Origin: Syntrophomonadaceae bacterium
GTDB lineage: Bacteria > Bacillota > Dethiobacteria > DTU022
Assembly (NCBI GenBank): GCA_003554395.1
Contig: PWGD01000148.1
Location: 70,036-134,035 of the forward strand
Direction of reading: 5' to 3'
DNA length: 64,000 bases
Of this stretch, positions 3,831-63,550 are shown in pieces. Numbering within the stretch: the stretch's first letter is position 1; each line of letters opens with the position of its first letter. A program made the position numbers and the translations under genes. The notes below the pieces were generated by a model, which made no database searches, was not told where the DNA came from, and worked only from the letters and a program-made list of their open reading frames with translations.

Positions 3831-4003
3831 TTTATAATAACCTCCTTAGCTGGTCTTCCTTTAATGATCATTAATTCTGTTTTAAAACCGCTTTTCCTGC
3901 CAGGTATTTCGTTAAAATATATAATAATATTGTTTAACTAACAATTTTTATATCATATGTAAAATGTTTCTCCCTCTTTTTCCCAGGCCTGCATTACCTG
4001 GAC

Positions 4004-4645: not shown

Positions 4646-4663
4646 ATCCGGTCTGACTATTGA

Positions 4664-5911: not shown

Positions 5912-5940
5912 TTTAATTCACCCCTTACAGGATGCTTAAT

Positions 5941-7281: not shown

Positions 7282-7397
7282 TTTGATTTCGGTGGGGTTG
7301 TTAATCCCTTTATCTCTAATGGCAGGGCCCTGCTTTCAATTAAAATGTTCATATACTCCATTTGACTGGCAAAAGCTGCGGAAACTGAATCATTTAA

Positions 7398-10846: not shown

Positions 10847-11941
10847 TTAGCAGGAAAATTTATGATCCAATTTTTTCATTGTTTCTACAATGCCTCCATA
10901 CTCGAGCTCCGAGTAGTGCAGCATTGCCGGGCCGGAAAAACCCTGTTCTCTAATATCAGATGCTTTCCGGGATACTTTGTCCCTCACATAGTCCCAGTAA
11001 GGGTGATCAAAGCAATCAACGGGTTCCGTTAACTTACCGTTATGGACGCAGAAGCCGACAGCGCTTACGACTGGCGGCCCATCAAAATATGAGATGCTGC
11101 AGCCCATCTTACAGGGCATTAATGGGCCCGTATGACTGCCCCGCATAAAACCGGCCACATAATGACCGATACTGTAGGGAGATAAAATCTCCCCGGTTGC
11201 AGGAAAGTCACCCTGGCAGCGCGCCAGCAGGACCGGATCGTCCTTACCGGTATAAGTTCCCGCAATGTTATGCAAGCGGGTCGTGCTGGCCGCCATGGCC
11301 TGTTGACCGGTAGCCCGTGAATAAATAGCTGATACAACGAAACGTTCGTTGTCCCGTAGCAAAGCAGCAATGTCATATGTCTCTTCAGGAGTATGCAGTT
11401 CAATAAACCGGTCTTCTTCAATATGAGCCACATCTAAAATAACAAACTTAAAACCTTGACTTATTTTTGGAGATAGGATCAGACCGGAGCAGTGCATTGG
11501 ATCGGCAAAACTTAGATATAGAGGCAGGTTGTAGGCACCGGGATCTGTTTTGTCCGCAGTAAAAAGCAGAAATGGTTCTGCCCGGCGTTCTTCTATCTCC
11601 ATTTCCGCGACGGCCGGGCCCAGTCCTTTTACATTACCGGAAAAAGCATCGGACAGCAGATCCTGCCCCGCTCCATACAGTCCCTGATCTTTGGCCTTTT
11701 CGGTTCCGCAGATAAAAGCGTTCCAGGCCAGTTGATGCAGTTCGGTGCAGCCCTCACCATGGTTATGGCAAAACAGAATTGCTATATCGTCTCCGGTATT
11801 GCCGATATAGTAATCGGTGATCAGTTTGCCCAGCTCCCGGTCAATACATTCTTTAACTGACTCAATTAAAGCCTGGCTGGGCTTGATATGGCCGGCAATA
11901 CTTCCAATGTCCGCCTTTATAACACTTAAGGTAGTTTTCAT
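10847..11941 (-). CDS. fbp: Bifunctional fructose-1,6-bisphosphate aldolase/phosphatase (class V FBPase, archaeal type)
   Basis: 364 aa. The start MKTTLSVIKADIGSIAGH matches the conserved N-terminus of FBP aldolase/phosphatase (PF01950). Confidence 0.85.
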   Translation of the reverse strand: MKTTLSVIKADIGSIAGHIKPSQALIESVKECIDRELGKLITDYYIGNTGDDIAILFCHNHGEGCTELHQLAWNAFICGTEKAKDQGLYGAGQDLLSDAFSGNVKGLGPAVAEMEIEERRAEPFLLFTADKTDPGAYNLPLYLSFADPMHCSGLILSPKISQGFKFVILDVAHIEEDRFIELHTPEETYDIAALLRDNERFVVSAIYSRATGQQAMAASTTRLHNIAGTYTGKDDPVLLARCQGDFPATGEILSPYSIGHYVAGFMRGSHTGPLMPCKMGCSISYFDGPPVVSAVGFCVHNGKLTEPVDCFDHPYWDYVRDKVSRKASDIREQGFSGPAMLHYSELEYGGIVETMKKLDHKFSC

Positions 11942-48629: not shown

Positions 48630-49862
48630 TTAGCTGGTTTTGATGATGCCCCTTTTTTTCATTTCTTCCAGGTCGCTATAATCATAATCCAATTTTTCTA
48701 AGATTTCTAAAGTGTGCTCTCCGTGTTCCGGGGGCGGCAGGCGCAGCTCCCCGACTTGTCCTGAAAATAACAGGGGGAATCCAACCCGGGTCGTTTTTGC
48801 CGCCTTTGCAGGGGTCGCTTCAAGCCAGTAGTTGCCTTCCTGGGATAGGGGGTGCTTAATGGCTTCATTTAGATCAAGGACCGGTTCACAGCAGGCATCC
48901 AGGTTTGCAAAAATAACTTCCCACTCTTTCCGGCTCTTGCTCTTAAAGAGGGTCCGCACTTCTTGAATCAGTTCCCTGTTTCCCACCGGTTGATCTTGTT
49001 CCTGTGCGTACTGCCGGTCAATCCACTGCTCTTTTCCAACCGCCTCACAAAATCTTCGCCAGAATACCGGTTCCAGGGCACCTAGGCTCATAAATTTACC
49101 ATCGCCGGTTTCATAAATGTTGTAGCAGGCAAATGAACCGCTTAATAGGCCCCGGCCGCACCTGGGCAGTTCTGCTCCGGCGTCCAAAAAAGAAGCCGGG
49201 TAGGCAAGCCAGGGAAGCAGGCCCCGGGTCATTGAAACATCTACAAAACGGCCTGCGCCGGTTCTTTCTCTCTCATAAAGCGCGAACATAATTCCGTTCA
49301 GAGCCATCAGGGCACCGCCGCCAATGTCGGCAATCTGGGTGGCGGGCACTACCGGCTTCCCATCTTCTCCTGCACTTAACTCCAGCAACCCGCTTAACGC
49401 CGTGTAGTTTAAATCGTGTCCGGCTTTGTCCCGGTAGGGGCCCTTATAACCGTAACCGGTAATAGCGGCATAAACCAGGCGCCCGTTCAGCCCGCTTAAT
49501 ACCCGGTAACCAAGCCCCAGGCGGTCCATAACTCCAGGCCGAAAACCTTCCACCAGGACATCTGAAGCGGCCGCGAGGGCCTTCAGTATCTCCCGCCCTT
49601 CTTCATTCTTCAGGTCCAGGGCCAGGGATTTCTTGTTCCGGTTCAAGTGCTTAAATAAAGTCCCAACCGGGCCCTTTCCGCCTTTATAAGAAGAGCCGGC
49701 GAAACGGGTTGGATCGCCGGCCTCCACATTTTCTACTTTAATAATTTCAGCTCCGTAATCACCGAGGATCATCGTGCACAAAGGTCCCGGCAGCAGGCTG
49801 GTCAAATCCAGGACCTTTAGTCCTTCCAGGGGCTGAGCTCTTTTTTTGCCCGTTTCAGCCAT
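48630..49862 (-). CDS. Family III CoA-transferase (CaiB/BaiF family)
   Basis: 410 aa. N-terminus LEGLKVLDLTSLLPGPLCTMILGDYGAEIIKVE and a conserved Asp region. Its start overlaps the upstream gene's stop. Confidence 0.85.
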   Translation of the reverse strand: MAETGKKRAQPLEGLKVLDLTSLLPGPLCTMILGDYGAEIIKVENVEAGDPTRFAGSSYKGGKGPVGTLFKHLNRNKKSLALDLKNEEGREILKALAAASDVLVEGFRPGVMDRLGLGYRVLSGLNGRLVYAAITGYGYKGPYRDKAGHDLNYTALSGLLELSAGEDGKPVVPATQIADIGGGALMALNGIMFALYERERTGAGRFVDVSMTRGLLPWLAYPASFLDAGAELPRCGRGLLSGSFACYNIYETGDGKFMSLGALEPVFWRRFCEAVGKEQWIDRQYAQEQDQPVGNRELIQEVRTLFKSKSRKEWEVIFANLDACCEPVLDLNEAIKHPLSQEGNYWLEATPAKAAKTTRVGFPLLFSGQVGELRLPPPEHGEHTLEILEKLDYDYSDLEEMKKRGIIKTS

Positions 49863-51475
49863 TAGCGGTGGGTGTAATGCGGAAGCATGACCGGGCCGAC
49901 TCTTCCTTTGCCCGCATCCGCCTTCTCCAGTTCCTGGTGATATGAAGCCACATGATTCAAATTAAGCCCTTCCGGGGTTGAAATTTCCCTGCTTTTTTCG
50001 GCGGCGCTCTTACCGGCCCGCCGGCCAAACACAATTATGTCGAGCAGTGAATTGCCCATCAAACGGTTGGTGCCGTGAATTCCCCCGGCCGCCTCACCGG
50101 CCACGTAAAGATTTTCCACACTGCTGCGGGCCTGGTCATCAATCAGCAGCCCGCCATTCTGGTAATGCAAGGTCGGATAAATCAACATCGGTTCCTTGCG
50201 GATATCGACATCAAAACGATGAAACTGGCGCATCATGGCCGGAAGCTGGCGCTCAATAGTCCCTTCGCCATGAATTAACTCAAGAATGGGCGAATCCAAC
50301 CAGACTGCGGTAATCCCCGTCGGCAGGGGCACACCCAGCCCGCGCTCTTCACACTCACGGATAATGGCCGATGACTCTACATCCCTGGTTTCCAGGTGAT
50401 AAACAAACTGCTCCCCGTTGATATTGAGCGGTTGCGCCCCCAGGCCCCGGGTTTTTTCCGTAACCAGGAGCCCTAACAGTTGGGGCGGATAGGCGCCTCC
50501 GGTCGGGTGGTACTGGATAGAATCGGTGTAGATGGTTTTCGCTCCGGCCCGGTAACCTATGACCAGTCCGTCAGCGGTGGCTCCATAGTGATTGCTGGTG
50601 GGAAAACCGCGGTAGTGCAACCTACCCGAACCTCCGGTGGCGACTATGACTGTTTTAGCCCGGGCGATCAGGTACTGCTCCGTTTCGAGGTTATAAAGGA
50701 CGGCCCCGGCTGCGCAGCCCTGTTTATCGAGTAATATTTCCACCGCCGGGCTGAATTCAACCACGGTAATTCCTTTATTATAAACTTCATCTCTTAAAGT
50801 CCTCATTATTTCCGCCCCGGTATAATCGCGGGCGGCGTGCATCCGCTTGCGGGAAGTCCCTCCGCCGTGAATGGTGATCATCTTTCCTTCTTCGTTTTTG
50901 TCAAACATGGTCCCCAGCTCTTCCAGCCACTTGATCACCAGCGGAGCATCCATGACCAGGGCCCGGGCCAGTTCCGGGATATTTTCCAACCTTCCGCCGC
51001 CGAGAACGTCGAGGTAATGGATAGCCGGAGTATCATTTTCCTTATCGGCAGCCTGGATACCACCCTGGGCCATCATGGTGTTGGCGTCGCCAAAGCGCAG
51101 CTTGGTGGTCAGCAAAACATCGGCGCCGGCTTCCTGCGCTATGAGGGCTGCCGAAGCGCCGGCCCCCCCGCCGCCAATAATTAAAACATCTACATCATAG
51201 TCGGGGTCGGATTTTAAATCTAGATCGATATCCCGGAGGCGGCTGTAAGCTTCGAAAACGTCGGCCATCTCATTGGGCATGCGGGTTCCTTTATCCACTC
51301 CCACATTTATATTGCGAAAACCGTCTTCTATATAATCGGGATGAAACTTCCTTAAAACATCGCGCCTTTCTTCCGGAGACATTCGCGGGTATTCCACGCC
51401 GACCCGGGAGGCCCTGCTTGCTTCCACTTTTTTCATTAATTCTTTTAACTGCGGCGTATAAGCCAATGGTTTCAC
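49862..51475 (-). CDS. Fumarate reductase / succinate dehydrogenase flavoprotein-like subunit (soluble, FAD)
   Basis: 537 aa. GGGGAG dinucleotide fold, MMAQGGIQAA, HPTGG, HYQNGGL and a C-terminal arginine region. These are the SdhA/FrdA/NadB family signatures. It has a ~70-aa N-terminal extension. Confidence 0.8.
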   Translation of the reverse strand: MKPLAYTPQLKELMKKVEASRASRVGVEYPRMSPEERRDVLRKFHPDYIEDGFRNINVGVDKGTRMPNEMADVFEAYSRLRDIDLDLKSDPDYDVDVLIIGGGGAGASAALIAQEAGADVLLTTKLRFGDANTMMAQGGIQAADKENDTPAIHYLDVLGGGRLENIPELARALVMDAPLVIKWLEELGTMFDKNEEGKMITIHGGGTSRKRMHAARDYTGAEIMRTLRDEVYNKGITVVEFSPAVEILLDKQGCAAGAVLYNLETEQYLIARAKTVIVATGGSGRLHYRGFPTSNHYGATADGLVIGYRAGAKTIYTDSIQYHPTGGAYPPQLLGLLVTEKTRGLGAQPLNINGEQFVYHLETRDVESSAIIRECEERGLGVPLPTGITAVWLDSPILELIHGEGTIERQLPAMMRQFHRFDVDIRKEPMLIYPTLHYQNGGLLIDDQARSSVENLYVAGEAAGGIHGTNRLMGNSLLDIIVFGRRAGKSAAEKSREISTPEGLNLNHVASYHQELEKADAGKGRVGPVMLPHYTHR

Positions 51476-51490
51476 TCCTCCCCTCCGGGT

Positions 51491-52186
51491 CTATTTTTCA
51501 ATTTCCCGGTTATTGTATAGTTCCTGAAGTTTTTCCTTGTCGGCGTTGACCAGCTCACTAATATCGCTATCCATCTCACCTTCTTCAATCGCTTTTGCCC
51601 TTTCGCTTAAGAAAGCATCCGGCCTGGCAATATAACGGCTGTAGAGACGTCGGCCGGCCAGGGCGGAATTATAATGGACAATGTTGACCGGGCAGCGCGA
51701 TACGCACAGCCCGCACATCAGGCAGTCAAAAGAGAGGTCGGCCGCTTTTGCAAAATCGCCGCGCTGCAAATAGGCAACATACTGCATCACGTCAATATCC
51801 TGGGGGCAGACCTTGGTGCAGGAACCGCAGCCCAGGCAGCGAAAAACTTCCGGGTATAGTTGGGCAAAATCGGCTACCGTGGGTTTGATTTCCTCCAGAT
51901 CATAAACCGCCTTCCGGGCCGGGAAAAAGGGTATCTGGGCCAGGTACATCCCTTCTTCAACCTTGGTCTGACAGGCCAGGCCGACCTTCAATTCGAAATC
52001 GCCGGCTATCCGGTACACAGTGGCGCAGGCCCCGCAAAAACCGGCCCGGCAGCCGCAGCCCCGCTTGAGCTGGTAACCGGCATATTCCATGGCATCCATT
52101 ATGGTCAGGGTTTCCGGGACAGAATACTTTTTACCCATGATATAGATATCCACCATTTTAATGGCATCTTTTACTGTTTCGTTCAT
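51491..52186 (-). CDS. Succinate dehydrogenase/fumarate reductase iron-sulfur subunit-like ([2Fe-2S] + two Cys-x2-Cys-x2-Cys-x3-CysPro motifs)
   Basis: 231 aa. N-terminal plant-type ferredoxin cysteines (CGCRAGFCGAC...C), then CLGCGSCTKVCP and CLMCGLCVSRCP. Confidence 0.8.
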   Translation of the reverse strand: MNETVKDAIKMVDIYIMGKKYSVPETLTIMDAMEYAGYQLKRGCGCRAGFCGACATVYRIAGDFELKVGLACQTKVEEGMYLAQIPFFPARKAVYDLEEIKPTVADFAQLYPEVFRCLGCGSCTKVCPQDIDVMQYVAYLQRGDFAKAADLSFDCLMCGLCVSRCPVNIVHYNSALAGRRLYSRYIARPDAFLSERAKAIEEGEMDSDISELVNADKEKLQELYNNREIEK

Positions 52187-52240
52187 AATCTCCTCCTCGT
52201 TCTATCAGGCTTCCTTTGGAATAGAGCTTCCAAACCTGAC

Positions 52241-53581
52241 TTACTCTTCCGGCGGTTCCGGGATAAAGCCATGTTCCATGGCGAACCTGGTCTGATCCTG
52301 GGATCGCTTGATGAATGATTCCGCCTTCTGGTAACATTCGTCGCGGCTGAGCTTAATCCTGGCCAGCCCTTCGTCAATTGCTTTCATCGCCGTTGCCGTG
52401 GCTACCCTGGGAAATACCTCCCACATATCCATGGTCGGCAAAATTTTCTCCGGATCCATACCGCCGTCGGGAGCGCAGGCGGCAAGTTCTTCGGCGGCGG
52501 CAATACACATGGTATCGGAGATGCCGCTGGCCTGAACGTCCAGGACTCCGCGGAATATAGCCGGGAAACCAAGGGAATTGTTGACCTGGTTCGGGAAGTC
52601 GGAACGGCCGGTAGAAACAATCTTTGCTCCCGCTTCCAGGGCTTCCCAGGGCCATATTTCAGGGATGGGATTGGCGCAGGCAAAAACAATCGCCTCCCTG
52701 GCCATGCTTTCCACCCATTCTTTTTTAATAGTATCCGGACCCGGTTTGGAAAGGCCAATCAGGACATCGGCTCCTTTACAGGCTTCTGCGGCACCACCGG
52801 TTAATCCTTCCCCGTTTGTGGTCCGGGCCAGTTCCCATTTAACCGGGTGCTCTTCTTTTAGCTCGGTGCGTCCTTCATGCAGGGCCCCTTTGCTGTCGAT
52901 CATGATAATTTTTTTGGGATCCATACCGGCTGCTATCAGGAGCCTGACCGTACAAATGTTGGCCGCTCCCGCCCCGATCAGGACAGTTTTAACCTCGCCA
53001 ATTTTTTTGTTCACGATTTTAAGGGCATTGATCAACCCGGCCAAAGTAACCAGGGCGGTGCCCTGTTGATCATCGTGCCAAACCGGGATCTCGCATTCTT
53101 CCTTTAACCGGTCCAGGACGTAAAAGCATTTGGGGCTGGCAATATCCTCTAAGTTGATACCCCCGAAGCTGGGTTGAAGCATCTTGACAAAATTAATCAA
53201 CTCGTCGGCGTCTTTAGTATCGACACAGATAGGAAAAGCATCGACCCCGCCCAGGTATTTGAAAAGCAGGGCCTTTCCTTCCATTACAGGCATACTTGCC
53301 TCCGGGCCAATGTCGCCCAGGCCAAGGACCCTGGTCCCATCGGAGACAACAGCGCAAAAATTAGCCTTGTTGGTATACTTATAAACATCCTCTTTGTTTC
53401 GGGCAATAGCTTTACAGGGTTCAGCCACCCCGGGAGTATACCAGATTGCGAAATCGCCGATGTTGCGGACACAGCTCTTTAAATTAACTTCGATTTTACC
53501 CCTGTAAAAAGGATGAAGGCGCATAGCATCTTCAGCCGGCTTTTTGGCCTTGGCCAACAATTCATCTTTGTTCATAGTCAC
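52241..53581 (-). CDS. NAD(P)-dependent malic enzyme (short, MaeA/YtsJ type)
   Basis: 446 aa. Conserved N-terminus LHPFYRGKIEV, FAIWYTPGVAEPC, and a Rossmann motif GAGAAN. Confidence 0.9.
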   Translation of the reverse strand: MTMNKDELLAKAKKPAEDAMRLHPFYRGKIEVNLKSCVRNIGDFAIWYTPGVAEPCKAIARNKEDVYKYTNKANFCAVVSDGTRVLGLGDIGPEASMPVMEGKALLFKYLGGVDAFPICVDTKDADELINFVKMLQPSFGGINLEDIASPKCFYVLDRLKEECEIPVWHDDQQGTALVTLAGLINALKIVNKKIGEVKTVLIGAGAANICTVRLLIAAGMDPKKIIMIDSKGALHEGRTELKEEHPVKWELARTTNGEGLTGGAAEACKGADVLIGLSKPGPDTIKKEWVESMAREAIVFACANPIPEIWPWEALEAGAKIVSTGRSDFPNQVNNSLGFPAIFRGVLDVQASGISDTMCIAAAEELAACAPDGGMDPEKILPTMDMWEVFPRVATATAMKAIDEGLARIKLSRDECYQKAESFIKRSQDQTRFAMEHGFIPEPPEE

Positions 53582-53656
53582 AAGTAATCCCTCCCTTTTT
53601 CTATGATATTATTAGAATACATCCATATAGGATTAAAATATAAAAAACAGCCCGGT

Positions 53657-54208
53657 TTAACGTGCGTAAGCTTTAGCTCCTTCAGCATATAAATCATTAC
53701 CGTAGGCATCGTTTATAACTGTAGCCGGAAAATCTTCCACTTCAAGACGGTGGATAGCTTCTGCTCCCAGTTCCGGGTAGGCCACCACTTCGCTTTGCTT
53801 GATCTTTTGGGAAAGCAGGGCCCCTGCTCCTCCCACCGCAGCCAGATAAAGGCCCTTGTACTGCTGCAGGGCATCTTTGACAGTCTGGTTGCGGAGGCCT
53901 TTTCCAATGCAGGCCTTCATGCCTTTTTCCAGCATCCGCGGCGTATAGGCGTCCATCCGGCCGCTGGTAGTCGGGCCGGCCGAGCCGATTACCTGCCCCG
54001 GTTTGGCCGGAGTCGGTCCAACATAATAGATAATCTGTCCCTGCAGGTCAATCGGCAGAGATTCTCCTTGATCCATTAACTCAACCAGTTTTTTATGGGC
54101 AGCATCCCGGGCGGTGTAGATAACACCGTTAATCAGGACATTATCACCGGTTTTCAGGGACAGGACAGCCTCATCTGTGAGAGGGGCTTCAATTTTTTTG
54201 GGTTCCAT
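53657..54208 (-). CDS. fumB: Class I fumarate hydratase (Fe-S hydro-lyase, tartrate/fumarate subfamily), beta subunit
   Basis: 183 aa. TtdB/FumB-like C-terminal domain. Confidence 0.85.
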   Translation of the reverse strand: MEPKKIEAPLTDEAVLSLKTGDNVLINGVIYTARDAAHKKLVELMDQGESLPIDLQGQIIYYVGPTPAKPGQVIGSAGPTTSGRMDAYTPRMLEKGMKACIGKGLRNQTVKDALQQYKGLYLAAVGGAGALLSQKIKQSEVVAYPELGAEAIHRLEVEDFPATVINDAYGNDLYAEGAKAYAR

Positions 54209-54224
54209 ACCTGTTTGCCTCCTT

Positions 54225-55070
54225 CTAGATTATCTTCTCCAGGTGCCGGCAGGCATGGCAGTTGATGTTCACCGCTGCCGCCATGCTGGCAATATGAGAA
54301 GGAAAAGTTTCAATGTGCACGGCCAGGGCAAAAACCCTGCCCCCGAAGCCCTGCGGACCCACACCAAGGTCATTGATCTTGTCCAGGATTTTATTTTCCA
54401 GGGCGGCAAAGCGGCTATCCGGGTGGGGCTGACCCACCGGCCGGAACAGGGCCTTTTTAGCCTGGACCGCCACCTTGTCAAAAGTGCCTCCGATACCCAC
54501 CCCTACCACAATCGGCGGGCAGGGGTTGGGGCCTGCCGTTTTGACATGGTTGACCACAAAATCGATCAGGCCCTCTTCGCCGTCAGCAGGTTTCAACATT
54601 TTAACGGCGCTCATGTTTTCGCTTCCGCCTCCCTTGGGGGCGAAAGCTATTTTCACCTTGTCCCCGGGAACAATAGCGGTATAAATAACGGCTGGAGTAT
54701 TGTCTCCGGTATTTTTACGGTCATAGAGAGGATCCTCAACAATTGATTTACGCAGGTATCCTTCAGTATAACCTTTTTTAACCCCGGCATTGATCGCTTC
54801 TTCCAGGGTTCCCCCGGTCAGGTGCACCTCCTGGCCCAGCTCCACAAAAAAAACGGCAAACCCCGTATCCTGGCAGATCGGAATTTGCTCGTTTTTGGCA
54901 ATTTCCAGGTTATCGATTAATTGTTTGAGCACCTCTTTCCCCGTTGGCGATTCTTCTACCTCCAGGGATCGCTTCAGGGCCCCTGAGACATCTTCACCGA
55001 GATAAATATTGGCTTCTTCGCACATCCCGGCCACTGTATCAGTGATGGTCGACACGGCAAGTTCGCGCAA
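54225..55070 (-). CDS. fumA: Class I fumarate hydratase, alpha subunit (Fe-S, N-terminal domain)
   Basis: 281 aa. TTG start with GGGAGGTG RBS. Cys ligands C..C...C. TtdA/FumA family. Confidence 0.85.
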   Translation of the reverse strand: MRELAVSTITDTVAGMCEEANIYLGEDVSGALKRSLEVEESPTGKEVLKQLIDNLEIAKNEQIPICQDTGFAVFFVELGQEVHLTGGTLEEAINAGVKKGYTEGYLRKSIVEDPLYDRKNTGDNTPAVIYTAIVPGDKVKIAFAPKGGGSENMSAVKMLKPADGEEGLIDFVVNHVKTAGPNPCPPIVVGVGIGGTFDKVAVQAKKALFRPVGQPHPDSRFAALENKILDKINDLGVGPQGFGGRVFALAVHIETFPSHIASMAAAVNINCHACRHLEKII

Positions 55071-55186: not shown

Positions 55187-56107
55187 TTATTTTGTCTCGC
55201 CAGAGCTGTTAACTCTTTTCAATAATCCCTCCCAGTCCCGATCCACTTCTTCCTGAAGAGCCTCAATGGTCATCTCGTCAACCTGCCTGAAGCGGCGCTG
55301 CGCTTCCAGGTACTCCTTTAACGGTGTCCTGGTCTTCTCCGGATAATAGGTCATCTGCCACTGCTCGCCGTTTATAATCTCGTAAAGCGGATAGAAGTTG
55401 GTGAAAACGGCCAGCCGAGACAGGTGGATCGTTTCGGACGAATCGGTCCCCCAACCCGGCGGACAGGGCGAAAGAACATGCATGAATCTGAACCCTTTGA
55501 TTCCCTGGGCTTTCTTCAGTTTATTTTCCATATCCTGCGGAAAAGCCAGGGACGCGGTGGCCGCATAAGGGATCCCGTGGGCGGCCATGATCCGCATGAT
55601 ATCTTTTTTCTGTCCGTGCTTAAACAGGGGATACGGGCGGGTACTGGTTCGGGCCCCAAAGGGGGTGGCCGAACTGGTCTGCATTCCCGTGTTCATGTAA
55701 GCTTCGTTGTCATAGCAGATAAAAATGTAGTCCTCGTTGCGCTGGGCGGCCCCTGACAGGGCCTGGAGACCGATATCAAAAGTGCCTCCGTCGCCGGCCA
55801 GCACTACTACCGTGGTGTCGTAATGCCCTTTGGCATTAAGCCCCCGCCTTAAACCGCTGCCCACCGCCCCGGCGCTGGGGAAGGGGCAGTGCAGGATCGG
55901 ACATTTTAAAGCTGTCAGCGGGGGCGCGCCGGCAATAATGCTCCAGCAGGAGGCGGTAATGGCCAGAGCCATGTTCGGGCCCAGGGCCCTGGTCAGGTAG
56001 CGGACCGTCAGGGCGCCCCCGCAACCCGGGCAGGCATTATGGCCTGAATACATTAATTCATTTTCTATGCTGTAGTCGGTAATTTTCACTTTAATTCCAC
56101 CCCCCAC
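55187..56107 (-). CDS. porB: 2-oxoacid:ferredoxin oxidoreductase beta subunit (TPP-binding)
   Basis: 306 aa. [4Fe-4S] Cys (CPGCG), TPP motif GDGG. Confidence 0.9.
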   Translation of the reverse strand: MGGGIKVKITDYSIENELMYSGHNACPGCGGALTVRYLTRALGPNMALAITASCWSIIAGAPPLTALKCPILHCPFPSAGAVGSGLRRGLNAKGHYDTTVVVLAGDGGTFDIGLQALSGAAQRNEDYIFICYDNEAYMNTGMQTSSATPFGARTSTRPYPLFKHGQKKDIMRIMAAHGIPYAATASLAFPQDMENKLKKAQGIKGFRFMHVLSPCPPGWGTDSSETIHLSRLAVFTNFYPLYEIINGEQWQMTYYPEKTRTPLKEYLEAQRRFRQVDEMTIEALQEEVDRDWEGLLKRVNSSGETK

Positions 56108-57228
56108 TCCTGATCAACCAATTTATCTCCCGGAGATTTTTCCGCTGCCCCGGCCAGAATATCTTTGGTCAGGTCAATACCGCCGGCCAGCAGCAGGTCC
56201 TGGATCACCGGCCTTACGGTAAGCCCGTACAAAGCAGCCCTGACCTCCTGGGCAAAATAGCCGCCGGTTCCCGTAGAACAATTGCGATCGACAATAATGA
56301 GCCGCTCCAGCCCCTGCTCTTCTACAATCCGGCCCAGTTCATCTCCCGGAAAAGGCCGAAACATCCTCAACTGGATCAGTCCGCAGCCCTTCAGTTCCGG
56401 TAAAAACCACTTGACGGTTTCCGCGGTGCTGCCGGCGGCCAGGAAGGCCGTTTTGGATCCTTCCGGGATGGTAGCATCCACCGTCTTGTAACTCCTTCCG
56501 AACACCCGGTAAAACTTCTCATTGATTGCAGTAAAAACTTGCGGGGCCCGGAGCATATCTTCGTGCCTCCTGCGGACCAGCTGCAGCTGAGTTTCCCCCT
56601 TAGAAAGGCCGTGCAGGTTGGCCTGGACTCCCGGTTCTACCTGGGCCTGAAACTGCGGCGGCCCAATAAATTCCCGGACCTTTTCAACTTCCGGGACATC
56701 AACCGGTTCGTAAGTGTGGGAAATGTAAAACCCGTCAAAAACTACCAGGCTGGGCAGGAGCAGTTCTTCAGAAAGCATGAAAGCCTGCAGGACAGTGTCG
56801 AACACTTCCTGGGCATTGGCACAATAGATCTGCATCCACCCGGTATCGCGCTGGCTGAGGCTATCCCCCTGGTCCGGATCCAGGACCCAAGGCGCACCCA
56901 CGGCCCGGTTCACATTGACCATAACAATGGGAAACCGGGCTCCGCTGCACCACTGGATCATTTCATGCATATAAGCCAGGCCGTGCGATGACGTGGCCGT
57001 AAACACCCTCGCTCCGGCCGCAACGGCCCCGTTGCAGCAGGAGAGGGCCGAATACTCCGATTCAACGCTGACAAACTCTCCTCCCAGTTCACCCTTGGCC
57101 TCAAAGTTGGCCAGGGTCTCCACGATTGCCGTCTGGGGCGTAATCGGGTAAGCCGCTACAAGATCTACTCCGGCCCGCTGGACAGCTATCGCTGCAGCCT
57201 GGCAACCGCTGATTAATTCATAGGGCAT
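56086..57228 (-). CDS. porA: 2-oxoacid:ferredoxin oxidoreductase alpha subunit
   Basis: Start at MPYELISG (57228), adjacent to the upstream gene's stop. POR/VOR alpha family. Confidence 0.9.
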   Translation of the reverse strand: MPYELISGCQAAAIAVQRAGVDLVAAYPITPQTAIVETLANFEAKGELGGEFVSVESEYSALSCCNGAVAAGARVFTATSSHGLAYMHEMIQWCSGARFPIVMVNVNRAVGAPWVLDPDQGDSLSQRDTGWMQIYCANAQEVFDTVLQAFMLSEELLLPSLVVFDGFYISHTYEPVDVPEVEKVREFIGPPQFQAQVEPGVQANLHGLSKGETQLQLVRRRHEDMLRAPQVFTAINEKFYRVFGRSYKTVDATIPEGSKTAFLAAGSTAETVKWFLPELKGCGLIQLRMFRPFPGDELGRIVEEQGLERLIIVDRNCSTGTGGYFAQEVRAALYGLTVRPVIQDLLLAGGIDLTKDILAGAAEKSPGDKLVDQEWGVELK

Positions 57229-57230
57229 CT

Positions 57231-58793
57231 TTAGTAACCCCCTTCCATTTGCAGGGCCCGGGCCGGGCACTCAGTGACACAAATGCCGCAACCCTTGCAG
57301 TAGTCAAGATTAAATTCATAGTTGTTGTTAATCCACTCAACGGCCACATCCGGACAAAAAAGATAGCAAATCCCGCATGTATTGCAGGTCCCGCATCCAA
57401 GGCAGCGGCCGGCCTCCAAAACCGGTTCCTTCTGCCTGTCCTGCAGCTCCAGGTCAGACCTGCCCAGCAGGTTCAATTCTTCAAAAGCCACCGGCTGCTC
57501 TGAAATACCAAAAACATCAGGACCGGGCCGGCTCTCTATCTTGGCCATAATGCTAAAAGCAGCCAGGCGCCCGGCCCTGATCGCTTCAGGGACCGTGGCG
57601 GGACCGCTGACCAGGTCTCCCCCGGCAAAGAGGGACATCTCTTCTTCAAGGGGATCAAAAACACTATAATCAGGTTCCTGGCCAAGAGCCAGGATTACCG
57701 ATCCGCATTCCTTTTTAAAAGTACGGCTCGTATCCAAGACCAGTCCTTCCCGGTTGGTTTTACTGTGATTGAAAAGCACAGCGCTGATGGAGCCGGAAGC
57801 GGTTTCTGTAACAACTTCAGCCGGATTGGCGTTAAAAACGAGCTCCACTCCTTCCTGTTCCGCCATTTCGACCTCACCCGGGTTGGCCGGCATTTCCGCC
57901 CGGCTTCTGCGGTAAATAAGGCTGACATGATTAATGCCATTCATGCGCAGGGCCGATCGGGCGCTGTCTACGGCCGCATTACCGCCCCCGATCACCACAA
58001 CCGGATCCTTTATTTCCACATGCTGTCTGGTATTGAACAGGCTTAGAAAATCCAGGGCATGGTAAACGCTTTTATGCTCCGCCCCCGCTAATTTTTCTTG
58101 GCGCGGCAGCCAGGCCCCCGTGGCCAGGAAAACTTCCCTGAAATCGTTGTTAAGTTCCCGCAGCATTAAATCCTCACCCAGGGTTCGGTTGGTGATAAAA
58201 GTTATGCCTTCCTCTTCCAGGATGGCCAGCTCCTTATTTAAAACCTCCCTGGGAAGGCGATATTCAGGGATTCCCAGGGCCAGCATTCCACCGCTTATCG
58301 AAGATTTTTCAAAAACGGTTACTTTGTAGCCATGATCTGAAAGGTAAAAAGCGCAGCTCAATCCCGCCGGCCCGGATCCGACCACCGCCACCGGATCTTT
58401 TACCGCCCGCGGCCCGCGCCGGGGCTGGTAGTGATCAAAGCGCCACTCGCCAATGGCCCTTTCAACAGCCGGTATTTCCAGTTCCTGATCCAGCCTGCCC
58501 CGGTTGCAGTTTTCAGTACAGGGAGAAAAACAGACATGGCCGGTCAGGGCCGGAAAGGGATTGGAACGGCTCATTATCTGCCAGGCGTCCTCCCACCGGC
58601 CGCCCTTGACCGCCTCCATCCAGTCGGGTACTTCTGAATGGAGAAGGCAATCGTGGCGGCATGGAGATAATCTTTTTATCTTCTCCGGAGCCGCCAGGCG
58701 CCAACCGCCGGTCTTGTTTAATGAACTGGCCTCACTTCCCCGGGCATAAAGATAGTTAAGAAGGGCTTCGTTTGTCTTACCTGACAAGGCCAC
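57231..58793 (-). CDS. GltD-like NAD(P)H-dependent flavoprotein fused to a 2x[4Fe-4S] ferredoxin domain (occupies the PorD/delta position of the oxidoreductase operon)
   Basis: 520 aa. N-terminal Fe-S cysteines (SPCRHDC...CFSPCTENC). Two dinucleotide folds (VAVVGSGPAGLSCA, VVVIGGGNAAVDSA), as in the glutamate synthase small subunit / SudA / NfnB family. C-terminal CLGCGTCNTCGICYLFCP...CKGCGICVTECP. Confidence 0.75.
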   Translation of the reverse strand: MALSGKTNEALLNYLYARGSEASSLNKTGGWRLAAPEKIKRLSPCRHDCLLHSEVPDWMEAVKGGRWEDAWQIMSRSNPFPALTGHVCFSPCTENCNRGRLDQELEIPAVERAIGEWRFDHYQPRRGPRAVKDPVAVVGSGPAGLSCAFYLSDHGYKVTVFEKSSISGGMLALGIPEYRLPREVLNKELAILEEEGITFITNRTLGEDLMLRELNNDFREVFLATGAWLPRQEKLAGAEHKSVYHALDFLSLFNTRQHVEIKDPVVVIGGGNAAVDSARSALRMNGINHVSLIYRRSRAEMPANPGEVEMAEQEGVELVFNANPAEVVTETASGSISAVLFNHSKTNREGLVLDTSRTFKKECGSVILALGQEPDYSVFDPLEEEMSLFAGGDLVSGPATVPEAIRAGRLAAFSIMAKIESRPGPDVFGISEQPVAFEELNLLGRSDLELQDRQKEPVLEAGRCLGCGTCNTCGICYLFCPDVAVEWINNNYEFNLDYCKGCGICVTECPARALQMEGGY

Positions 58794-59367
58794 CCACCTC
58801 CCTTACTCTTTCAGATCCTTCGTTAACAGCGCTGATATTGGCTTCTAAACTGGCCGTTATCCTTTTTTTGATTGAATCAACCAGGTTATCCAGGGAAGCT
58901 ATACCGCTAACCCGGGCCATCGCTCCGAGCATAACTGTATTGACCACCGGAAAACCGGCCACTGTCAAACCGTGCTTGCGGGCAATATCGGTAGCATCAA
59001 CAGTATAAACTCTGAAGCGGTTTCCTGCCAGGGCATCACCGGGCAAGTTGTCCAGGTTATCCTCTGCGATGTTAACCATTAGAATGCCCCCTTCTTTCAG
59101 GCCGGAAAGCAGGGTTTCATCGCTCAGAGTCGGATCGAAAACAACAACATAATCCGGGTTATAAATACGGCTCCTGGGCATCAGGGGATTTTCTCCGGCT
59201 CTTATAAAGGCAGTCACCGGAGCGCCGCGCCTTTCAGCCCCGAACAATGAAAAGGCCCTTGCATAGCGGCCGTCCAGAAATACAGCTTCGGCAAAAATTG
59301 CGGCCGCTACGACGATCCCCTGGCCGCCGCGTCCATGCAGCCTAAATTCAAGCATGCTGTCAGCCAT
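58777..59367 (-). CDS. porG: 2-oxoacid:ferredoxin oxidoreductase gamma subunit (pyruvate/ketoisovalerate oxidoreductase gamma)
   Basis: 196 aa. Conserved start FRLHGRGGQGIV. Confidence 0.9.
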   Translation of the reverse strand: MADSMLEFRLHGRGGQGIVVAAAIFAEAVFLDGRYARAFSLFGAERRGAPVTAFIRAGENPLMPRSRIYNPDYVVVFDPTLSDETLLSGLKEGGILMVNIAEDNLDNLPGDALAGNRFRVYTVDATDIARKHGLTVAGFPVVNTVMLGAMARVSGIASLDNLVDSIKKRITASLEANISAVNEGSERVREVGGLVR

Positions 59368-59459: not shown

Positions 59460-60494
59460 TTACCGCATCTGCAATCTCTCTTCGGCATAAATATCTGCTA
59501 TCTCTGCCGGCAGTAACTGTTCTTCCCGGGCTCTTCTGAACAACATCTTAAGGCGTTCTTCAATGCGGTCCACTTCTGCTGTGATTTTCTCTTGATCAGT
59601 AATACCCTGCCTGTGCATTTCAACAAAAACCAGGCCGCCGGCATTGATGACATAATCGGGGGCATAAAGAATGCCTCGCTCTTGTATAGCTTTAGCCATC
59701 TCTTTAGTTTTGTAGATGTTATTGGCGGCGCCGGCAATAATTTTACATTTTAACTGGGGCAGAGTTTTTTCATTTATTACTCCCCCGCCCGCACAAGGCG
59801 AAAAGATATCGCATTCCTGGCTATAAATATCTTCGGGGGAAACCGCCCGGGCACCCCACTTTTCCTGGGCTGCTTTCACTCTCTCCTGGTCCAGATCGCA
59901 AATAATCAGGCTGGCTCCTTCATCAACCAGGTGCTGACAGAGGGATTCGCCCACACTGCCAATACCCTGGACGGCTACAACTTTACCTTCCAGATTAGGA
60001 GAACCATATACCTCCTCTGCACAAGCCCTGATGCCTCTCCAGACCCCGTAAGCAGTAAAAGGAGAAGGGCTGCCCACACTCTCACCGCCGATAACGCATT
60101 CTGTTTCGTCGCACATTAAAGTCAGATCATCCTCATCGACACCCATATCTTTACCGGTATAAAAACGTTTGTTTAAGCGATTAAGGAAACGGCCGTAAGA
60201 ATGGAAAAGTTCCGGACACTTATCCTTATTGGGATCTCCGATAATAAGGCCTTTCCCTCCTCCGACCGGCAGCTCCGCTGCAGCAGACTTGTAACTCATT
60301 CCGCGGGCCAGATGCATTAAATCCTCTATGGCCGCTTCTTCTGAAGCATAAGACCACATGCGGGTTCCACCCAGGGCCGGACCACGGACTGTGCTGTGAA
60401 TGGCAACCGCCGCTTTTAAACCGCACGAGGCATCACATACCATAATCAATTCTTCGAAACCCTGTTCTTCCATCTTGGCCAGATAACCGGACAT
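59460..60494 (-). CDS. Glu/Leu/Phe/Val dehydrogenase family, leucine/valine-dehydrogenase-like (paralog 2)
   Basis: 344 aa. LGPALGGTRMW..GGGK (catalytic Lys region), NAD fold GIGSVG. Close to LeuDH in length and sequence. Confidence 0.85.
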   Translation of the reverse strand: MSGYLAKMEEQGFEELIMVCDASCGLKAAVAIHSTVRGPALGGTRMWSYASEEAAIEDLMHLARGMSYKSAAAELPVGGGKGLIIGDPNKDKCPELFHSYGRFLNRLNKRFYTGKDMGVDEDDLTLMCDETECVIGGESVGSPSPFTAYGVWRGIRACAEEVYGSPNLEGKVVAVQGIGSVGESLCQHLVDEGASLIICDLDQERVKAAQEKWGARAVSPEDIYSQECDIFSPCAGGGVINEKTLPQLKCKIIAGAANNIYKTKEMAKAIQERGILYAPDYVINAGGLVFVEMHRQGITDQEKITAEVDRIEERLKMLFRRAREEQLLPAEIADIYAEERLQMR

Positions 60495-60761
60495 GATTAT
60501 CCTCCTCTAAAAAAATTTTATTAACCTTTCTTAACATAATAATTCGCAATTTTCTTACCAAACTTTTTTTAGTGCCCTCCCAAACCGGCTTATCTTCGCT
60601 GGAATTATTAAATTTTTCCCCACAACCGCTTCATCCAGGGCCGGGCAGGCTTCGAGATACCATGCATAATTTTGCAAATTGTAATTGTTTGCTTGCATAA
60701 TTTTGCATGGTTGCTTATCCGTACCATCCAACCGCTTTGTAAAATTCCTGCCTTTCCAACT

Positions 60762-61796
60762 TTATCTTTTTCCCAGTTTTTCCTCGGCATAAATGTTGGC
60801 CGCCTCTTCCGGGAGCAGGTTTTGTTCACGGGACCGGCTGAATAGTTCTTTCAGGCGTCCCTCGATCCGGGCTATTAGCTGCCTGATTTTCTCTTCATCC
60901 CTTTCACCCTGCCTCCGCATCTCGACAAAAATTAATCCCCCGGCGTTAATGATATAATCGGGGGCATAAAGGATCCCCCGTTCCTTGAGGGCGGCACCGA
61001 GCCCCTCTTCCTTAATAACATTGTTGGCCGCACCGGCCACAATATTGCATTTCAGGTGGGATAATGTTTGTTCATTGATCACCCCTCCGATCCCGCAGGG
61101 CACGAAGATATCGCACTCCCGGAAAATAATTTGATCGGTATCGACCGCCGTAGCACCAAAGGTGGTTACCGCCTGCTTAACCCTGTTTTGATCGAGATCG
61201 CTTACCAGCAGCCGGGCGCCTTCTCCGGCCAGGGACCCGCAAAGGGCCGCGCCTACACTGCCCACCCCCTGGACAGCAATGACCTTGTCTTCCAGGTTCG
61301 GGGAACCGTAGACCTCCTCTGCGCAGGCTTTAATGCCTTTCCAGACCCCGTAGGCGGTAAAGGGTGACGGGCTGCCGATTTCAGTTCCCCCCACCACATG
61401 GCGGGTTTCCTTCCTGATGCAGTCCAGGTCGTTCTCTTCGATTCCCATATCGGCCGCTGTTATAAATCTGCCATTTAAATGTTCCACGAAGCGACCGTAA
61501 CAACTGAACAGCTCTTCGCATTTGTCCCGACCGGGATCGCCAATGATCACCCCTTTCCCCCCGCCGAGCGGCAGGTCCGCGGCCGCTGCCTTGTAACTCA
61601 TCCCGCAGGCCAGGCACATGACATCATCCACGGCCTCCTCTTCGCTTGGGTATGTCCACATCCGGGTTCCTCCCAGGGCCGGTCCGAGGGCCGTGCTGTG
61701 AATGGCTATCGCCCCCTTCAGGCCGGTCTCTGTATCATGGAGCAGGACCAGTTCCTCAAATCCTTTTTCTTCCATTTTAGCCAGGTATTCAGTCAT
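60762..61796 (-). CDS. Glu/Leu/Phe/Val dehydrogenase family, leucine/valine-dehydrogenase-like (paralog 1)
   Basis: Start at MTEYLAKMEE with a GGAGGG RBS. About 65% identical to paralog 2 across the full length. Confidence 0.85.
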   Translation of the reverse strand: MTEYLAKMEEKGFEELVLLHDTETGLKGAIAIHSTALGPALGGTRMWTYPSEEEAVDDVMCLACGMSYKAAAADLPLGGGKGVIIGDPGRDKCEELFSCYGRFVEHLNGRFITAADMGIEENDLDCIRKETRHVVGGTEIGSPSPFTAYGVWKGIKACAEEVYGSPNLEDKVIAVQGVGSVGAALCGSLAGEGARLLVSDLDQNRVKQAVTTFGATAVDTDQIIFRECDIFVPCGIGGVINEQTLSHLKCNIVAGAANNVIKEEGLGAALKERGILYAPDYIINAGGLIFVEMRRQGERDEEKIRQLIARIEGRLKELFSRSREQNLLPEEAANIYAEEKLGKR

Positions 61797-61867
61797 AATT
61801 AGTCCCTCCATTATATAAGTCAGGCTCGCTGGTTGCTTGCATTGGTTGCTTTTATAAACTATATATT

Positions 61868-61883
61868 TGCAATTTTTATACCA
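61868..61883 (-). promoter_or_regulatory. Sigma-54 (-24/-12) promoter TGGTAT-N5-TTGCA upstream of the dehydrogenase/oxidoreductase operon
   Basis: Minus strand TGGTATAAAAATTGCA. GG and GC are separated by 10 nt, as in the consensus TGGCAC-N5-TTGCW. It is ~70 nt upstream of the paralog-1 start. A sigma-54 EBP gene lies immediately upstream. Confidence 0.45.
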
Positions 61884-62161: not shown

Positions 62162-63550
62162 CTAGAGGAGGTTGTGCCGGTGCATTTTGTTGTAGAGGCT
62201 GCGGATAGAAATATCAAGGCGGCGAGCCGCTTCGGCCTTGTTCCAACCCGTTTCTTTCAAAGCCTGCTGCAACAGATCTTTTTCCCAAACCCGGTGCATC
62301 TGCCGGAGCGTCCCCTGAAGCGGCGTATCATCCCGGTCCTTTTCTTCACCGGCGCCGCCGAAAGGCATGACCAGATGCTTTTCTTCGATCACGTCCTGGT
62401 CGCGGCCAAGATTGATCAGGGCCCGGGCAATTACATTTTCCAGCTCGCGCATGTTGCCGGGCCAGTCGTATTCTTTAAGGCGGCGGTAGACCGCGGGGGA
62501 TACATCGACAATCGGCCGGCCGTACTTCTTGGTCAGTCCGGCCAGGAAATGGTTGACCAGGAGGGGAATATCGCTTTTAATATCCCGCAGGGGAGGCAGG
62601 TGAATGGGCAATACGTTCAGGCGGTAATACAGATCCTTGCGAAATAAGCCCTCTTCGACCATTTCTTCCAGGTTGGCATTAGTGGCTACAATCAGACGCA
62701 CATCGATGGCCCTGGTCCGCGATTCACCGACCCTGATGATCTCACCTTCCTGAATGGCCCGGAGCAGCCGGGCCTGGGCCTCGTTTCCCATGGCCCCGAT
62801 TTCATCCAAAAATAGAGTACCACCGTTGGCTTCTTCGAAATAGCCTTTGCGCCCGCCTTTTTTAGCCCCTGTAAAAGCGCCGTCGGCATAGCCGAAGAGC
62901 TCGCTTTCCAGCAGGGTGTCGGTCAGGGAGGCGCAGTTAAGCCGGATAAAGGGCTCATCGGTCCTCTCGCTGTCATGGTGGATAGCATGGGCAAACAGCT
63001 CCTTGCCGGTCCCGCACTCGCCCCGCAGGAGCACGCAGGCCGGGGTAGCTGCCCCCTGCCTGGCCCGTTCAATTGTTTCCCGGATCTGCTCGCTGTTACC
63101 GATAATATCATCAAAGGTATAATGCGATTCAAGCTCCCTGACCAGGCGTCTGGTGCGGTGCAGTTCTTCCATCACCCGGCGCAGTTCGGATATATCGTGG
63201 ATAACCCCGACACTGCCTTTCAATTGACCCTTGATGATCAGCGGGGCGCAGCTGACAATCACTTCCCGGCGGAAGGGGCCTACTTTCATCCGCACGCCCT
63301 TAATCGGTTTGCCGGTTTGCAGAACCCGCATATGAACGCTCTCGCCTTCGGCTATATCGACTGTAGCAGGCTTTCTCAGGACCTGTTCTTCGCTCATCCC
63401 TGTAATCCTGGTATAAGCCCGGTTAACCATGATCCCGATCCCGTTTTCATCGACCACCGAAACGGCATCGGAAAGAGAATCGATAATAGTTTGCAGAAGC
63501 AGTTTACTATCACCGTCTGTTGCAAGAGAAGGAATATTTTCATTGTTCAT
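62162..63550 (-). CDS. Sigma-54-dependent transcriptional activator with N-terminal PAS domain and C-terminal Fis-type HTH (RocR/BkdR/PrpR-like EBP)
   Basis: 462 aa. PAS ([20 protein letters not shown]...), AAA+ with Walker A GECGTGKE, the GAFTGA sigma-54 contact motif, and a C-terminal HTH. Confidence 0.92.

Follow-up and report, generated by a model that had tools for sequence, protein, structure and literature searches.

The 64,000-nucleotide stretch analysed here (the window; contig PWGD01000148.1 of assembly GCA_003554395.1, from a Syntrophomonadaceae bacterium) carries on its minus strand the genes of a 2-oxoacid:ferredoxin oxidoreductase (OFOR) of the pyruvate or ketoisovalerate type (POR/VOR). 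The gamma subunit, of the PorC/PorG type (58777..59367), matches PF01558 at 2.7e-40 and TIGR02175 with 181.5 bits (1e-53, cut-off 81.1). The alpha subunit (56086..57228; POR_N 3e-63, PFOR_II) has 380 residues from the ATG at 57228, the start used by the gene callers. The beta subunit (55187..56089; TPP_enzyme_C), which holds thiamine pyrophosphate (TPP) and a [4Fe-4S] cluster, has 300 residues from the gene callers' start and overlaps alpha by 4 nt. Between gamma and alpha, where a delta gene belongs, an open reading frame (ORF) at 57231..58793 encodes 520 residues with Pfam matches to Fer4_20 (residues 43-119), Pyr_redox_2 (135-382) and Fer4/Fer4_21 (469-516). An earlier note on this DNA had assigned the gene to the delta position and had proposed a search for these domains; the ORF and the Pfam and NCBIfam matches of its neighbours bear out the position, and all three domains were matched. 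We consider it likely that the product of this gene, called the delta-cassette gene below, is the delta subunit of a POR/VOR-type OFOR with four subunits, rebuilt as a flavo-iron-sulfur protein, and that it wires the OFOR to NADP+.

The true start of the gene is probably the TTG at 58787 (MSGKTN..., 518 residues) rather than the GTG at 58793 to which the ORF reaches, because the TTG is preceded at 9 nt by GGAGG, a better spacing than that of the alternative, because the closest homologue (P0001, 90% identical) starts at the equivalent position, and because gene callers chose it in three independent assemblies (NCBI, ENA and JGI contigs). Residue numbers refer to this 518-residue form (57231..58787). 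As read from the sequence, the gamma stop codon (TAA, 58777-58779) falls inside the 5' end of the ORF, an overlap of 11-17 nt, and the stop codon of the ORF (TAA, 57231-57233) is followed by 'ag' and then by the alpha ATG at 57228, a gap of 2 nt. These are the overlap and the abutting junction described earlier, and the gene is translationally coupled to both neighbours. It is real and no assembly artefact, since NCBI, ENA and JGI contigs carry an identical set of genes, which is also found in at least 80 species-level genomes. The gene content of the window is identical to that of contigs from JGI metagenome 3300000362 (SL_1KL_011_SED, a sample name that points to soda-lake sediment), from NCBI GCA_001564315.1 and from an ENA assembly (L081-L083).

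Profile matches and alignments identify the delta-cassette protein as a PorD that is split into arm and core by an inserted flavoprotein cassette. A stand-alone PorD is small (~80-105 residues); here, ~420 residues are inserted between its two parts. The N-terminal arm (residues ~20-38, SSLNKTGGWRLAAPEKIKR; 58674..58730, minus strand) aligns to residues 15-27 (ANKTGGWRNFRPV) of 9bt4_G, the delta chain of a pyruvate:ferredoxin oxidoreductase (PFOR). Within it the segment LNKTGGWRLAAP pairs with ANKTGGWRNFRP of that chain, and a KTGxWR..P motif precedes the core. Among 62 homologues, ranging down to 40% identity, arm residues T26, G27, W29, R30 and P34 are at least 90% conserved. The dicluster core (residues 467-518; 57234..57389, minus strand), matched by TIGR02179 and PorD_Arch, contains two CxxCxxCxxxCP motifs, C468/471/474/478-P and C497/500/503/507-P, which are invariant in the same set.

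The full-length protein reaches 54.1 bits on TIGR02179 (PorD_KorD), under the cut-off of 60.05. When the C-terminal 68 residues are isolated, PorD_KorD and PorD_Arch become the top-ranked families, with 61.6 bits on the former and 61.0 bits on the latter (NF040684, cut-off 120), in support of the delta-like ferredoxin part proposed earlier. For comparison with PorD, residues 43-457 were deleted in silico. The resulting 103-residue chimera of arm and core aligns to residues 15-80 of 9bt4_G (E 1.2e-14) with a nearly identical NKTGGWR..P segment, and extends the matches to PorD models to positions 6-75 of 78 and 31-100 of 105. The earlier description of a GltD-like N-terminus with a C-terminal ferredoxin was therefore right in composition, a GltD/NfnB-like flavoprotein with a PorD-like dicluster, and wrong in topology: the PorD arm is N-terminal, and a permuted cassette is inserted between arm and core.

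By its profile matches and ligand order the insert is a circularly permuted NfnL/GltD cassette with a site for FAD and NADP(H) and two [4Fe-4S] clusters. It comprises, all on the minus strand, a Fer4_20 part (58431..58667; profile positions 30-110) with C43, C47, C86, C90, C94 and E109; FAD and NADP(H) Rossmann domains (57528..58400) with GSGPAG at 137-142, GGGNAA at 267-272 and YRR at 292-294; and a displaced first Fer4_20 element (57390..57425; residues 455-466, ...EAGRCLGCG) with C462 and C465, placed by a permutation test and by alignment to NfnB. The canonical GltD/NfnB ligand order, Cx2Cx4Cx3C ... Cx3-5Cx3C ... E/Q, is broken: the first two cysteines are missing N-terminally and are found at 462 and 465, past the flavoprotein part. 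In its native order the protein scores 50.7 bits on Fer4_20, and the match begins at profile position 30. When residues 444-465 (...EAGRCLGC) are moved before residue 39, the score rises to 70.1 bits and the match extends back to position 13; a control with the native PorD-arm prefix gives no gain (50.0 bits). Because moving this segment forward both raises the score and extends the match, we read the cassette as permuted. The rearranged sequence aligns colinearly with residues 30-127 of T. maritima NfnB.

The published list of NfnB cluster ligands and the meaning of the YRR motif were taken from PMC7596348. All eight NfnB ligands have counterparts in the window protein. For the distal cluster, C39, C42, C47 and C100 of NfnB correspond to C462, C465, C43 and C94, and for the proximal cluster C51, C90, C96 and E117 correspond to C47, C86, C90 and E109. 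C465 lies only two residues before C468, the first cysteine of the PorD core. All members of the homologue set have the 15 Fe-S cysteines (15 of 15) and the dinucleotide motifs GSGPAG (FAD) and GGGNAA (NADPH), and at least 90% of them have E109; a Bradyrhizobium protein of 34% identity shows the same pattern of ligands and arm. YRR is a determinant for NADP(H) in NfnB and DsrL-2 (PMC7596348), and its presence in the window protein points to NADP(H) specifically.

The window protein thus has much in common with NfnB/NfnL (4ylf_B, 5jca_L), with GltD and with the N-terminal half of dihydropyrimidine dehydrogenase (DPD): Fer4_20, the folds for FAD (GxGxxG) and NADPH (GxGxxA), the eight ligands and YRR. 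It differs from them in the circular permutation of its ligand segments. A partner corresponding to GltB, to NfnS/NfnA or to the FMN half of DPD was found neither in the operon nor in the 64 kb window. AlphaFold2 models the protein with confidence as one body (pLDDT 87.7, pTM 0.86). The best matches of this model in the PDB are NfnA of NfnABC (9bov_A, 9n5u_A) and StnC of S. ovata (8oh5_C), with query TM-scores (TMq) of 0.75-0.77, followed by NfnB, GltD and DPD (4ylf_B, 5jca_L, 2vdc_G; TMq 0.65-0.69). The best sequence matches, too, are of the StnC/NfnA type (2e-71), in which the cassette is an NADPH port.

To see how far the gene keeps its partners, one genome per GTDB species was surveyed, which gave 80 full-length relatives, and flanking OFOR genes were located by tblastn. 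The delta-cassette gene adjoins genes for OFOR gamma, alpha and beta in 77 of the 77 informative loci, three further loci being too short to judge, and none of the informative flanks lacks OFOR genes. Two gene orders occur. The order gamma-X-alpha-beta, where X is the delta-cassette gene, is found in 29 loci from Syntrophomonadaceae and other Bacillota, Dethiobacteria, Desulfovibrionaceae, Acetothermia, Thermodesulfobacteriota, Zixibacteria and a Bathyarchaeote, which answers the proposal in the earlier note to look for this order in other genomes. The order gamma-alpha-beta-X occurs in 48 loci (40 complete and 8 cut by contig ends) from Burkholderiales, Rhodocyclaceae, Actinomycetes, Nitrospirota, Alphaproteobacteria including Bradyrhizobium, and the isolate Rubrivivax sp. 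A210. The same partnership in two independent gene orders across phyla argues strongly that the delta-cassette protein serves as the delta subunit of the OFOR. Together with the coupling on both sides it also agrees with the earlier view of the gene as an integral operon member. A scan of the 64 kb window for CxxCxxCxxxCP motifs gave no separate PorD-like ORF, the sole other ORF with the motif being a FrdB/TfrB-like gene, so that no rival porD within the window competes for the role. Synteny, like the domain anatomy, ligand conservation and operon coupling above, is observed directly.

Because of the composite GltD/NfnB-PorD build, the delta position, the ranking of the PorD models, the lack of another PorD in the window and the adjacency to OFOR genes, a wiring of 2-oxoacid oxidation to NAD(P)+ is a reasonable reading of this subunit. 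From the same features we infer an electron path, NADP+ as the acceptor, a direction and a set of substrates. The retained arm and core of PorD would dock on alpha and beta like an ordinary delta subunit. Electrons would then pass from the 2-oxoacid to TPP, to the [4Fe-4S] cluster of beta, through the two delta clusters to the distal cassette cluster (C462, C465, C43, C94), and onward through the proximal cluster (C47, C86, C90, E109) and FAD to NADP+. With the GltD fold opened after the second and before the third of its cysteines, the new termini would lie side by side, as insertion into a loop needs, and the permutation would weld the distal cassette cluster to the first delta cluster. The net reaction would be 2-oxoacid + CoA + NADP+ to acyl-CoA + CO2 + NADPH with no need of free ferredoxin, which would make the complex an anaerobic functional analogue of the 2-oxoacid dehydrogenase complexes. 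In this genome the substrates are most likely branched-chain and/or aromatic 2-oxoacids, which would be supplied by two Leu/Phe/Trp-type amino-acid dehydrogenases encoded upstream.

Several points weigh against this proposal. NADP+ as the acceptor is predicted from a three-residue motif and from homology. A distal cluster shared between C462/C465 and C43/C94 is a prediction from sequence. As its fourth ligand the proximal cluster has the Glu (E109) of the bifurcating NfnB, which leaves room for a more complex redox role. As to substrate specificity, alpha and beta stay under all equivalog cut-offs, and models of the VorB type and of the PorA/PorB type score alike; for beta the best match is NF008818 (VorB type) with 363 bits against 334 bits for PorB, both under their cut-offs. 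Since the two subunits do not separate VOR-type from POR-type models, we commit only to 'branched-chain and/or aromatic'. Our literature search found no biochemical study of any member of the family. Finally, the 2-oxoglutarate:NADP+ oxidoreductase (KGOR) of Ebenau-Jehle et al. 2003, an analogous enzyme, reportedly reduces ferredoxin too, and by this analogy the present complex may do so as well.

If the NfnL-like FAD acted as it does in NfnSL, the complex would be an electron-confurcating or -bifurcating OFOR. Low-potential electrons of the OFOR branch would be merged with, or separated from, a second branch of high potential, so that 2-oxoacid oxidation together with NADH could yield 2 NADPH or, in reverse, NADPH could drive the reductive carboxylation of acyl-CoA. 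The cassette is homologous to the bifurcating NfnB and its proximal cluster keeps the conserved Glu of NfnB, a ligand linked to a low-potential cluster and replaced by Lys in the non-bifurcating StnC (PMC10482914); the adjacent dehydrogenases would supply the NADH. However, GltD and DPD keep a non-Cys fourth ligand without bifurcating, the cassette is no more than an NADPH port in NfnA (9bov/9n5u) and StnC (8oh5), the nearest relatives in sequence and structure, and a single linear chain uses up all Fe-S ligands. A second branch, be it an NfnS/PyrK-like [2Fe-2S]/FAD partner, a HydBC-like module or another, was found neither in the operon nor in the 64 kb window, nor beside the gene in those parts of the 80 loci that were screened. 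Because no second electron branch appears in any of these places, we judge bifurcation or confurcation quite unlikely; the confurcating variant raised in the earlier note gained no positive evidence. A self-contained form, in which the FAD, next to a Glu-ligated low-potential cluster of the NfnB type, would itself divide the hydride of NADPH between the OFOR chain and a high-potential acceptor, perhaps recruited in trans, is very unlikely. If true, it would permit NADPH-driven 2-oxoacid synthesis, and with it CO2 fixation, with no ferredoxin involved. Run the other way, it would save the ~180 mV that the reduction of NADP+ by a 2-oxoacid otherwise wastes, and it might explain why the gene is so frequent in aerobes without low-potential ferredoxin systems. 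The low-potential-type Glu ligand could also serve an NADPH-linked 2-oxoacid synthase (acyl-CoA + CO2 to 2-oxoacid) whose product the dehydrogenases would aminate, so that scavenged volatile fatty acids would be turned into branched-chain or aromatic amino acids. It is textbook knowledge that both OFORs and Leu-type dehydrogenases can in principle run in reverse, and two amino-acid dehydrogenase genes lie close to the OFOR genes. We regard this biosynthetic direction as unlikely: NADPH (~-320 mV) alone cannot drive a carboxylation at ~-500 mV, the cluster encodes no acyl-CoA ligase, and its PAS/sigma-54 activator and duplicated dehydrogenases resemble catabolic operons of the bkd type.

The protein might, on the other hand, be no subunit at all and act as a stand-alone NADPH:ferredoxin oxidoreductase of the DsrL or Nfn kind that recycles free ferredoxin beside an OFOR. 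Its domain list (Fe-S, FAD/NAD(P), C-terminal dicluster ferredoxin) resembles that of DsrL (PMC7596348), and the full-length score on PorD_KorD falls just under the cut-off (54.1 against 60.05). Yet it carries both the arm and the core specific to PorD, in a window that holds no other delta although POR/VOR-type alpha, beta and gamma normally need one; it is translationally coupled on both sides, and it is OFOR-adjacent in all 77 informative loci, in two independent gene orders and many phyla. These observations make a stand-alone enzyme highly improbable. With DsrL it does share a GltD/NfnB-like body, a C-terminal two-cluster ferredoxin domain and YRR as a marker of NADP(H), whereas DsrL has an N-terminal ferredoxin domain in canonical order, a linker of ~100 residues and DsrAB as its partner (PMC7596348). 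Löffler et al. ascribe to DsrL an organism with dsrAB, the ~100-residue linker and a gene that is not immediately linked to POR/VOR subunit genes; they noticed such genes beside POR/VOR genes, set them aside and thereby excluded them from DsrL (PMC7596348). By these criteria, the position between OFOR gamma and alpha and a linker of ~40 residues set the window protein apart from DsrL. In our literature search this exclusion criterion was the sole trace of the family; no description of the arm, cassette and core anatomy, of the permutation or of the enzymology was found.

The preferred reading, a delta subunit that wires an OFOR to NADP+, can be set beside several known systems. PorABCD and VorABCD complexes, such as the PFOR of M. 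acetivorans (PDB 9bt4), share with it the families to which gamma, alpha and beta belong, the order of the genes (gamma-delta-alpha-beta), the NKTGGWR..P arm and the core with two CxxCxxCxxxCP motifs. They differ in that an ordinary delta has ~85-105 residues against 518 in the window and lacks the ~420-residue insert for FAD, NADP(H) and two [4Fe-4S] clusters; the predicted acceptor is NADP+ here rather than free ferredoxin. In StnC and NfnA the cassette likewise sits inside another Fe-S protein. The GltD-like domain of StnC spans residues 102-565, and its FAD is explicitly non-bifurcating and passes single electrons into a cluster chain (PMC10482914); NfnA of Csac is likewise a non-bifurcating entry point for NADPH through FAD (PMC11829005). 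The host scaffold is PorD in the window protein and a NuoG/Fdh-like subunit in StnC and NfnA, the fourth proximal ligand is Glu here and Lys there, and a bifurcating module like HydBC does not accompany the window protein. In 9bov_A, residues ~553-566 read 'EKEAIAEASRCLEC' after the flavoprotein part, an 'EA.RC..C' element, and there is no CxxC at the start of the NfnL-like domain. The permuted cassette is probably shared with the Stn and NfnABC enzymes, and may be present in solved structures without having been described as such.

An NAD(P)-linked OFOR is itself not new. Ebenau-Jehle et al. 2003 are said to have described the KGOR of Azoarcus evansii as an OFOR core with an FAD component, in three subunits of ~63, 62 and 37 kDa, and Hirsch et al. 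1998 reportedly described a phenylglyoxylate:NAD+ oxidoreductase, PadEFGHI. In both enzymes the flavoprotein is presumably a separate subunit, next to a separate small delta (PadF) in Pad; in the window protein, flavoprotein and delta form one polypeptide. The Rhodocyclaceae and Bradyrhizobium loci of our survey have four separate genes for products of ~24, 46, 37 and 59 kDa. These do not fit the three KGOR subunits, and the Azoarcus enzyme is not equated with the present family. The NCBIfam models for PadE, PadF, PadG and PadI match the window's gamma, delta core, alpha and beta, respectively, and PadH is not among the best 25 of the 110 NCBIfam families matched by the delta-cassette protein. 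In passages of later papers, the PadEFGHI work of Hirsch 1998 is cited (PMC5109826), one KGOR subunit is listed among the GltD homologues (PMC10134865) and KGOR is given as a core of the KorAB type whose partner is of the BzdV type (PMC5736913); a further secondary source for the subunits of KGOR is PMC8163825.

The fused architecture has also been captured by a database model. NF009410 (PRK12771, 'NAD(P)-binding protein') has the same full-length architecture, covers residues 22-517 of the window protein and bears no functional name. With 403 bits against a cut-off of 516 the window protein represents a divergent branch of this architecture, and relatives score 774 (L077), 784 (L037) and 577 bits (L025). 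The cut-off is passed by proteobacterial, actinobacterial and archaeal relatives, among them Bradyrhizobium, Rubrivivax and a Bathyarchaeote, which are also OFOR-linked. With KGOR and PadEFGHI reducing NAD(P)+ by means of an FAD subunit and with this model on record, the idea has precedents in bacteria, and the earlier note overstated its novelty. Eukaryotic pyruvate:NADP+ oxidoreductase (PNO), to which the note compared it, is a further precedent for the function. The PNO of Euglena and Cryptosporidium is a single-chain PFOR with a C-terminal FMN/FAD module of the cytochrome-P450-reductase (CPR) type, and the likeness consists in an OFOR covalently coupled to an NADP+-reducing flavoprotein. 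A CPR module was considered for the window protein and rejected, as Pfam gave no match to flavodoxin, FAD_binding_1, NAD_binding_1 or FNR; by its domain content the NADP module is unrelated to that of PNO, and the fusion is an independent solution.

That OFORs can be NAD(P)-linked, and that the GltD cassette is reused as a module, is thus established. What the window adds is a widespread OFOR form, recognised by a database and functionally unnamed, whose delta subunit carries an inserted and permuted NADP(H) port. It occurs in at least 77 species-level genomes of Bacillota, Desulfovibrionaceae, Acetothermia, Bathyarchaeota, Nitrospirota, Actinomycetes, Burkholderiales and Alphaproteobacteria. 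If the proposed wiring is true, many genes annotated as 'pyruvate/ketoisovalerate ferredoxin oxidoreductase' would encode ferredoxin-independent 2-oxoacid:NADP+ oxidoreductases, and the redox bookkeeping of amino-acid fermenters, syntrophs and many aerobes would shift: the step would yield NADPH in place of reduced ferredoxin, hence less H2 and no Rnf-linked energy conservation. The anatomy further suggests a reusable, insertable NADPH port, whose adjacent termini would let a permuted GltD/NfnL cassette enter different Fe-S scaffolds. PorD is such a scaffold here, and NuoG-like subunits apparently are in Stn and NfnABC, where only sequence hints of the permutation are seen. Such a principle would be useful for engineering NADPH-coupled OFORs for CO2 fixation and 2-oxoacid chemistry.

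The closest species-level relatives of the window are Syntrophomonadaceae metagenome-assembled genomes with the isolate names CSSed and T3Sed, which we take to denote soda-lake sediment samples; among more distant relatives, the isolate names CROMO and NSHQ14B presumably refer to serpentinizing-system sites. Aerobic or facultative carriers, with the order gamma-alpha-beta-X, include Burkholderiales, Bradyrhizobium, Actinomycetes including Ca. Planktophila, and Nitrospirota (loci L026 and L029-L080; for example L077 at 2975-7587 and L037 at 2860-7596). One would not expect aerobes to have an OFOR that is independent of ferredoxin and possibly linked to NADP. Five Burkholderiales loci (L036, L045, L053, L062 and L068) have a malic-enzyme-like gene ~400-600 nt downstream of the delta-cassette match, with 28-30% identity to the malic enzyme of the window, a hint that their substrate may be pyruvate or another 2-oxoacid derived from C4 compounds.

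Upstream of the OFOR genes in the window lie two paralogous amino-acid dehydrogenase genes of the Glu/Leu/Phe/Val family, paralogue 1 at 59460..60494 and paralogue 2 at 60762..61811 (gene callers' start 61796; ELFV_dehydrog_N, ELFV_dehydrog), and a gene for a PAS / sigma-54 AAA+ / HTH_8 transcriptional activator at 62162..63550 (PAS, Sigma54_activat, HTH_8), all on the minus strand. The top NCBIfam match of the dehydrogenases is Trp_DH_ScyB, with 345 bits for paralogue 2, and because this lies under the cut-off of 600 we place the two enzymes only in the Leu/Phe/Trp dehydrogenase clade, with these as candidate specificities. Both dehydrogenases and the activator, which is likely the regulator of the cluster, are kept in loci of Syntrophomonadaceae and related Bacillota (L001-L015). 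Two promoter-like elements of the sigma-54 type -24/-12 were found on the minus strand, TGGTATAAAAATTGC at 61869..61883 upstream of the first dehydrogenase gene, as a consensus match only, and TGGTAAGAAAATTGC at 60546..60560, ~52 nt upstream of the start at 60494. They resemble each other (TGGTA-N6-ATTGC) and lie 50-75 nt upstream of the dehydrogenase genes; window-wide, such matches are fewer than expected by chance (32 against 60). Their placement, strand and mutual similarity are suggestive and would fit the adjacent PAS/sigma-54 activator. A sequence scan showed no such element before the gamma gene and no terminator-like site between 59460 and 59367, and since gamma thus has neither its own element nor a terminator before it, the OFOR genes are probably co-transcribed with the second dehydrogenase gene. 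The bkd operon of Bacillus is under the control of sigma-54 and BkdR. The layout of the cluster parallels it, and by this analogy the OFOR-NADP complex would replace the lipoamide-dependent branched-chain 2-oxoacid dehydrogenase.

Directly after the OFOR genes follows, on the same strand, a further gene set (48630-55070). It encodes the two subunits of a fumarate hydratase (54225..55070 and 53657..54208), the malic enzyme (52241..53581), a TfrB/FrdB-like 2Fe-2S and dicluster protein (51491..52186), a TfrA/FrdA-like flavoprotein (49862..51475) and a family III CoA-transferase (48630..49862). By way of malate, fumarate and succinate, this set could serve as a sink for electrons from the NAD(P)H produced upstream. 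Fumarase and malic enzyme stay beside the OFOR genes in loci L001, L002, L006, L007, L010 and L014-L016. Elsewhere in the window, among typical housekeeping genes of Bacillota (rpsB ... nusA-infB-truB-ribF-pnp, RNase J, ftsK, recA, RNase Y), an archaeal-type class V fructose-1,6-bisphosphate aldolase/phosphatase is encoded at 10847-11941 on the minus strand (PF01950, 2e-155).

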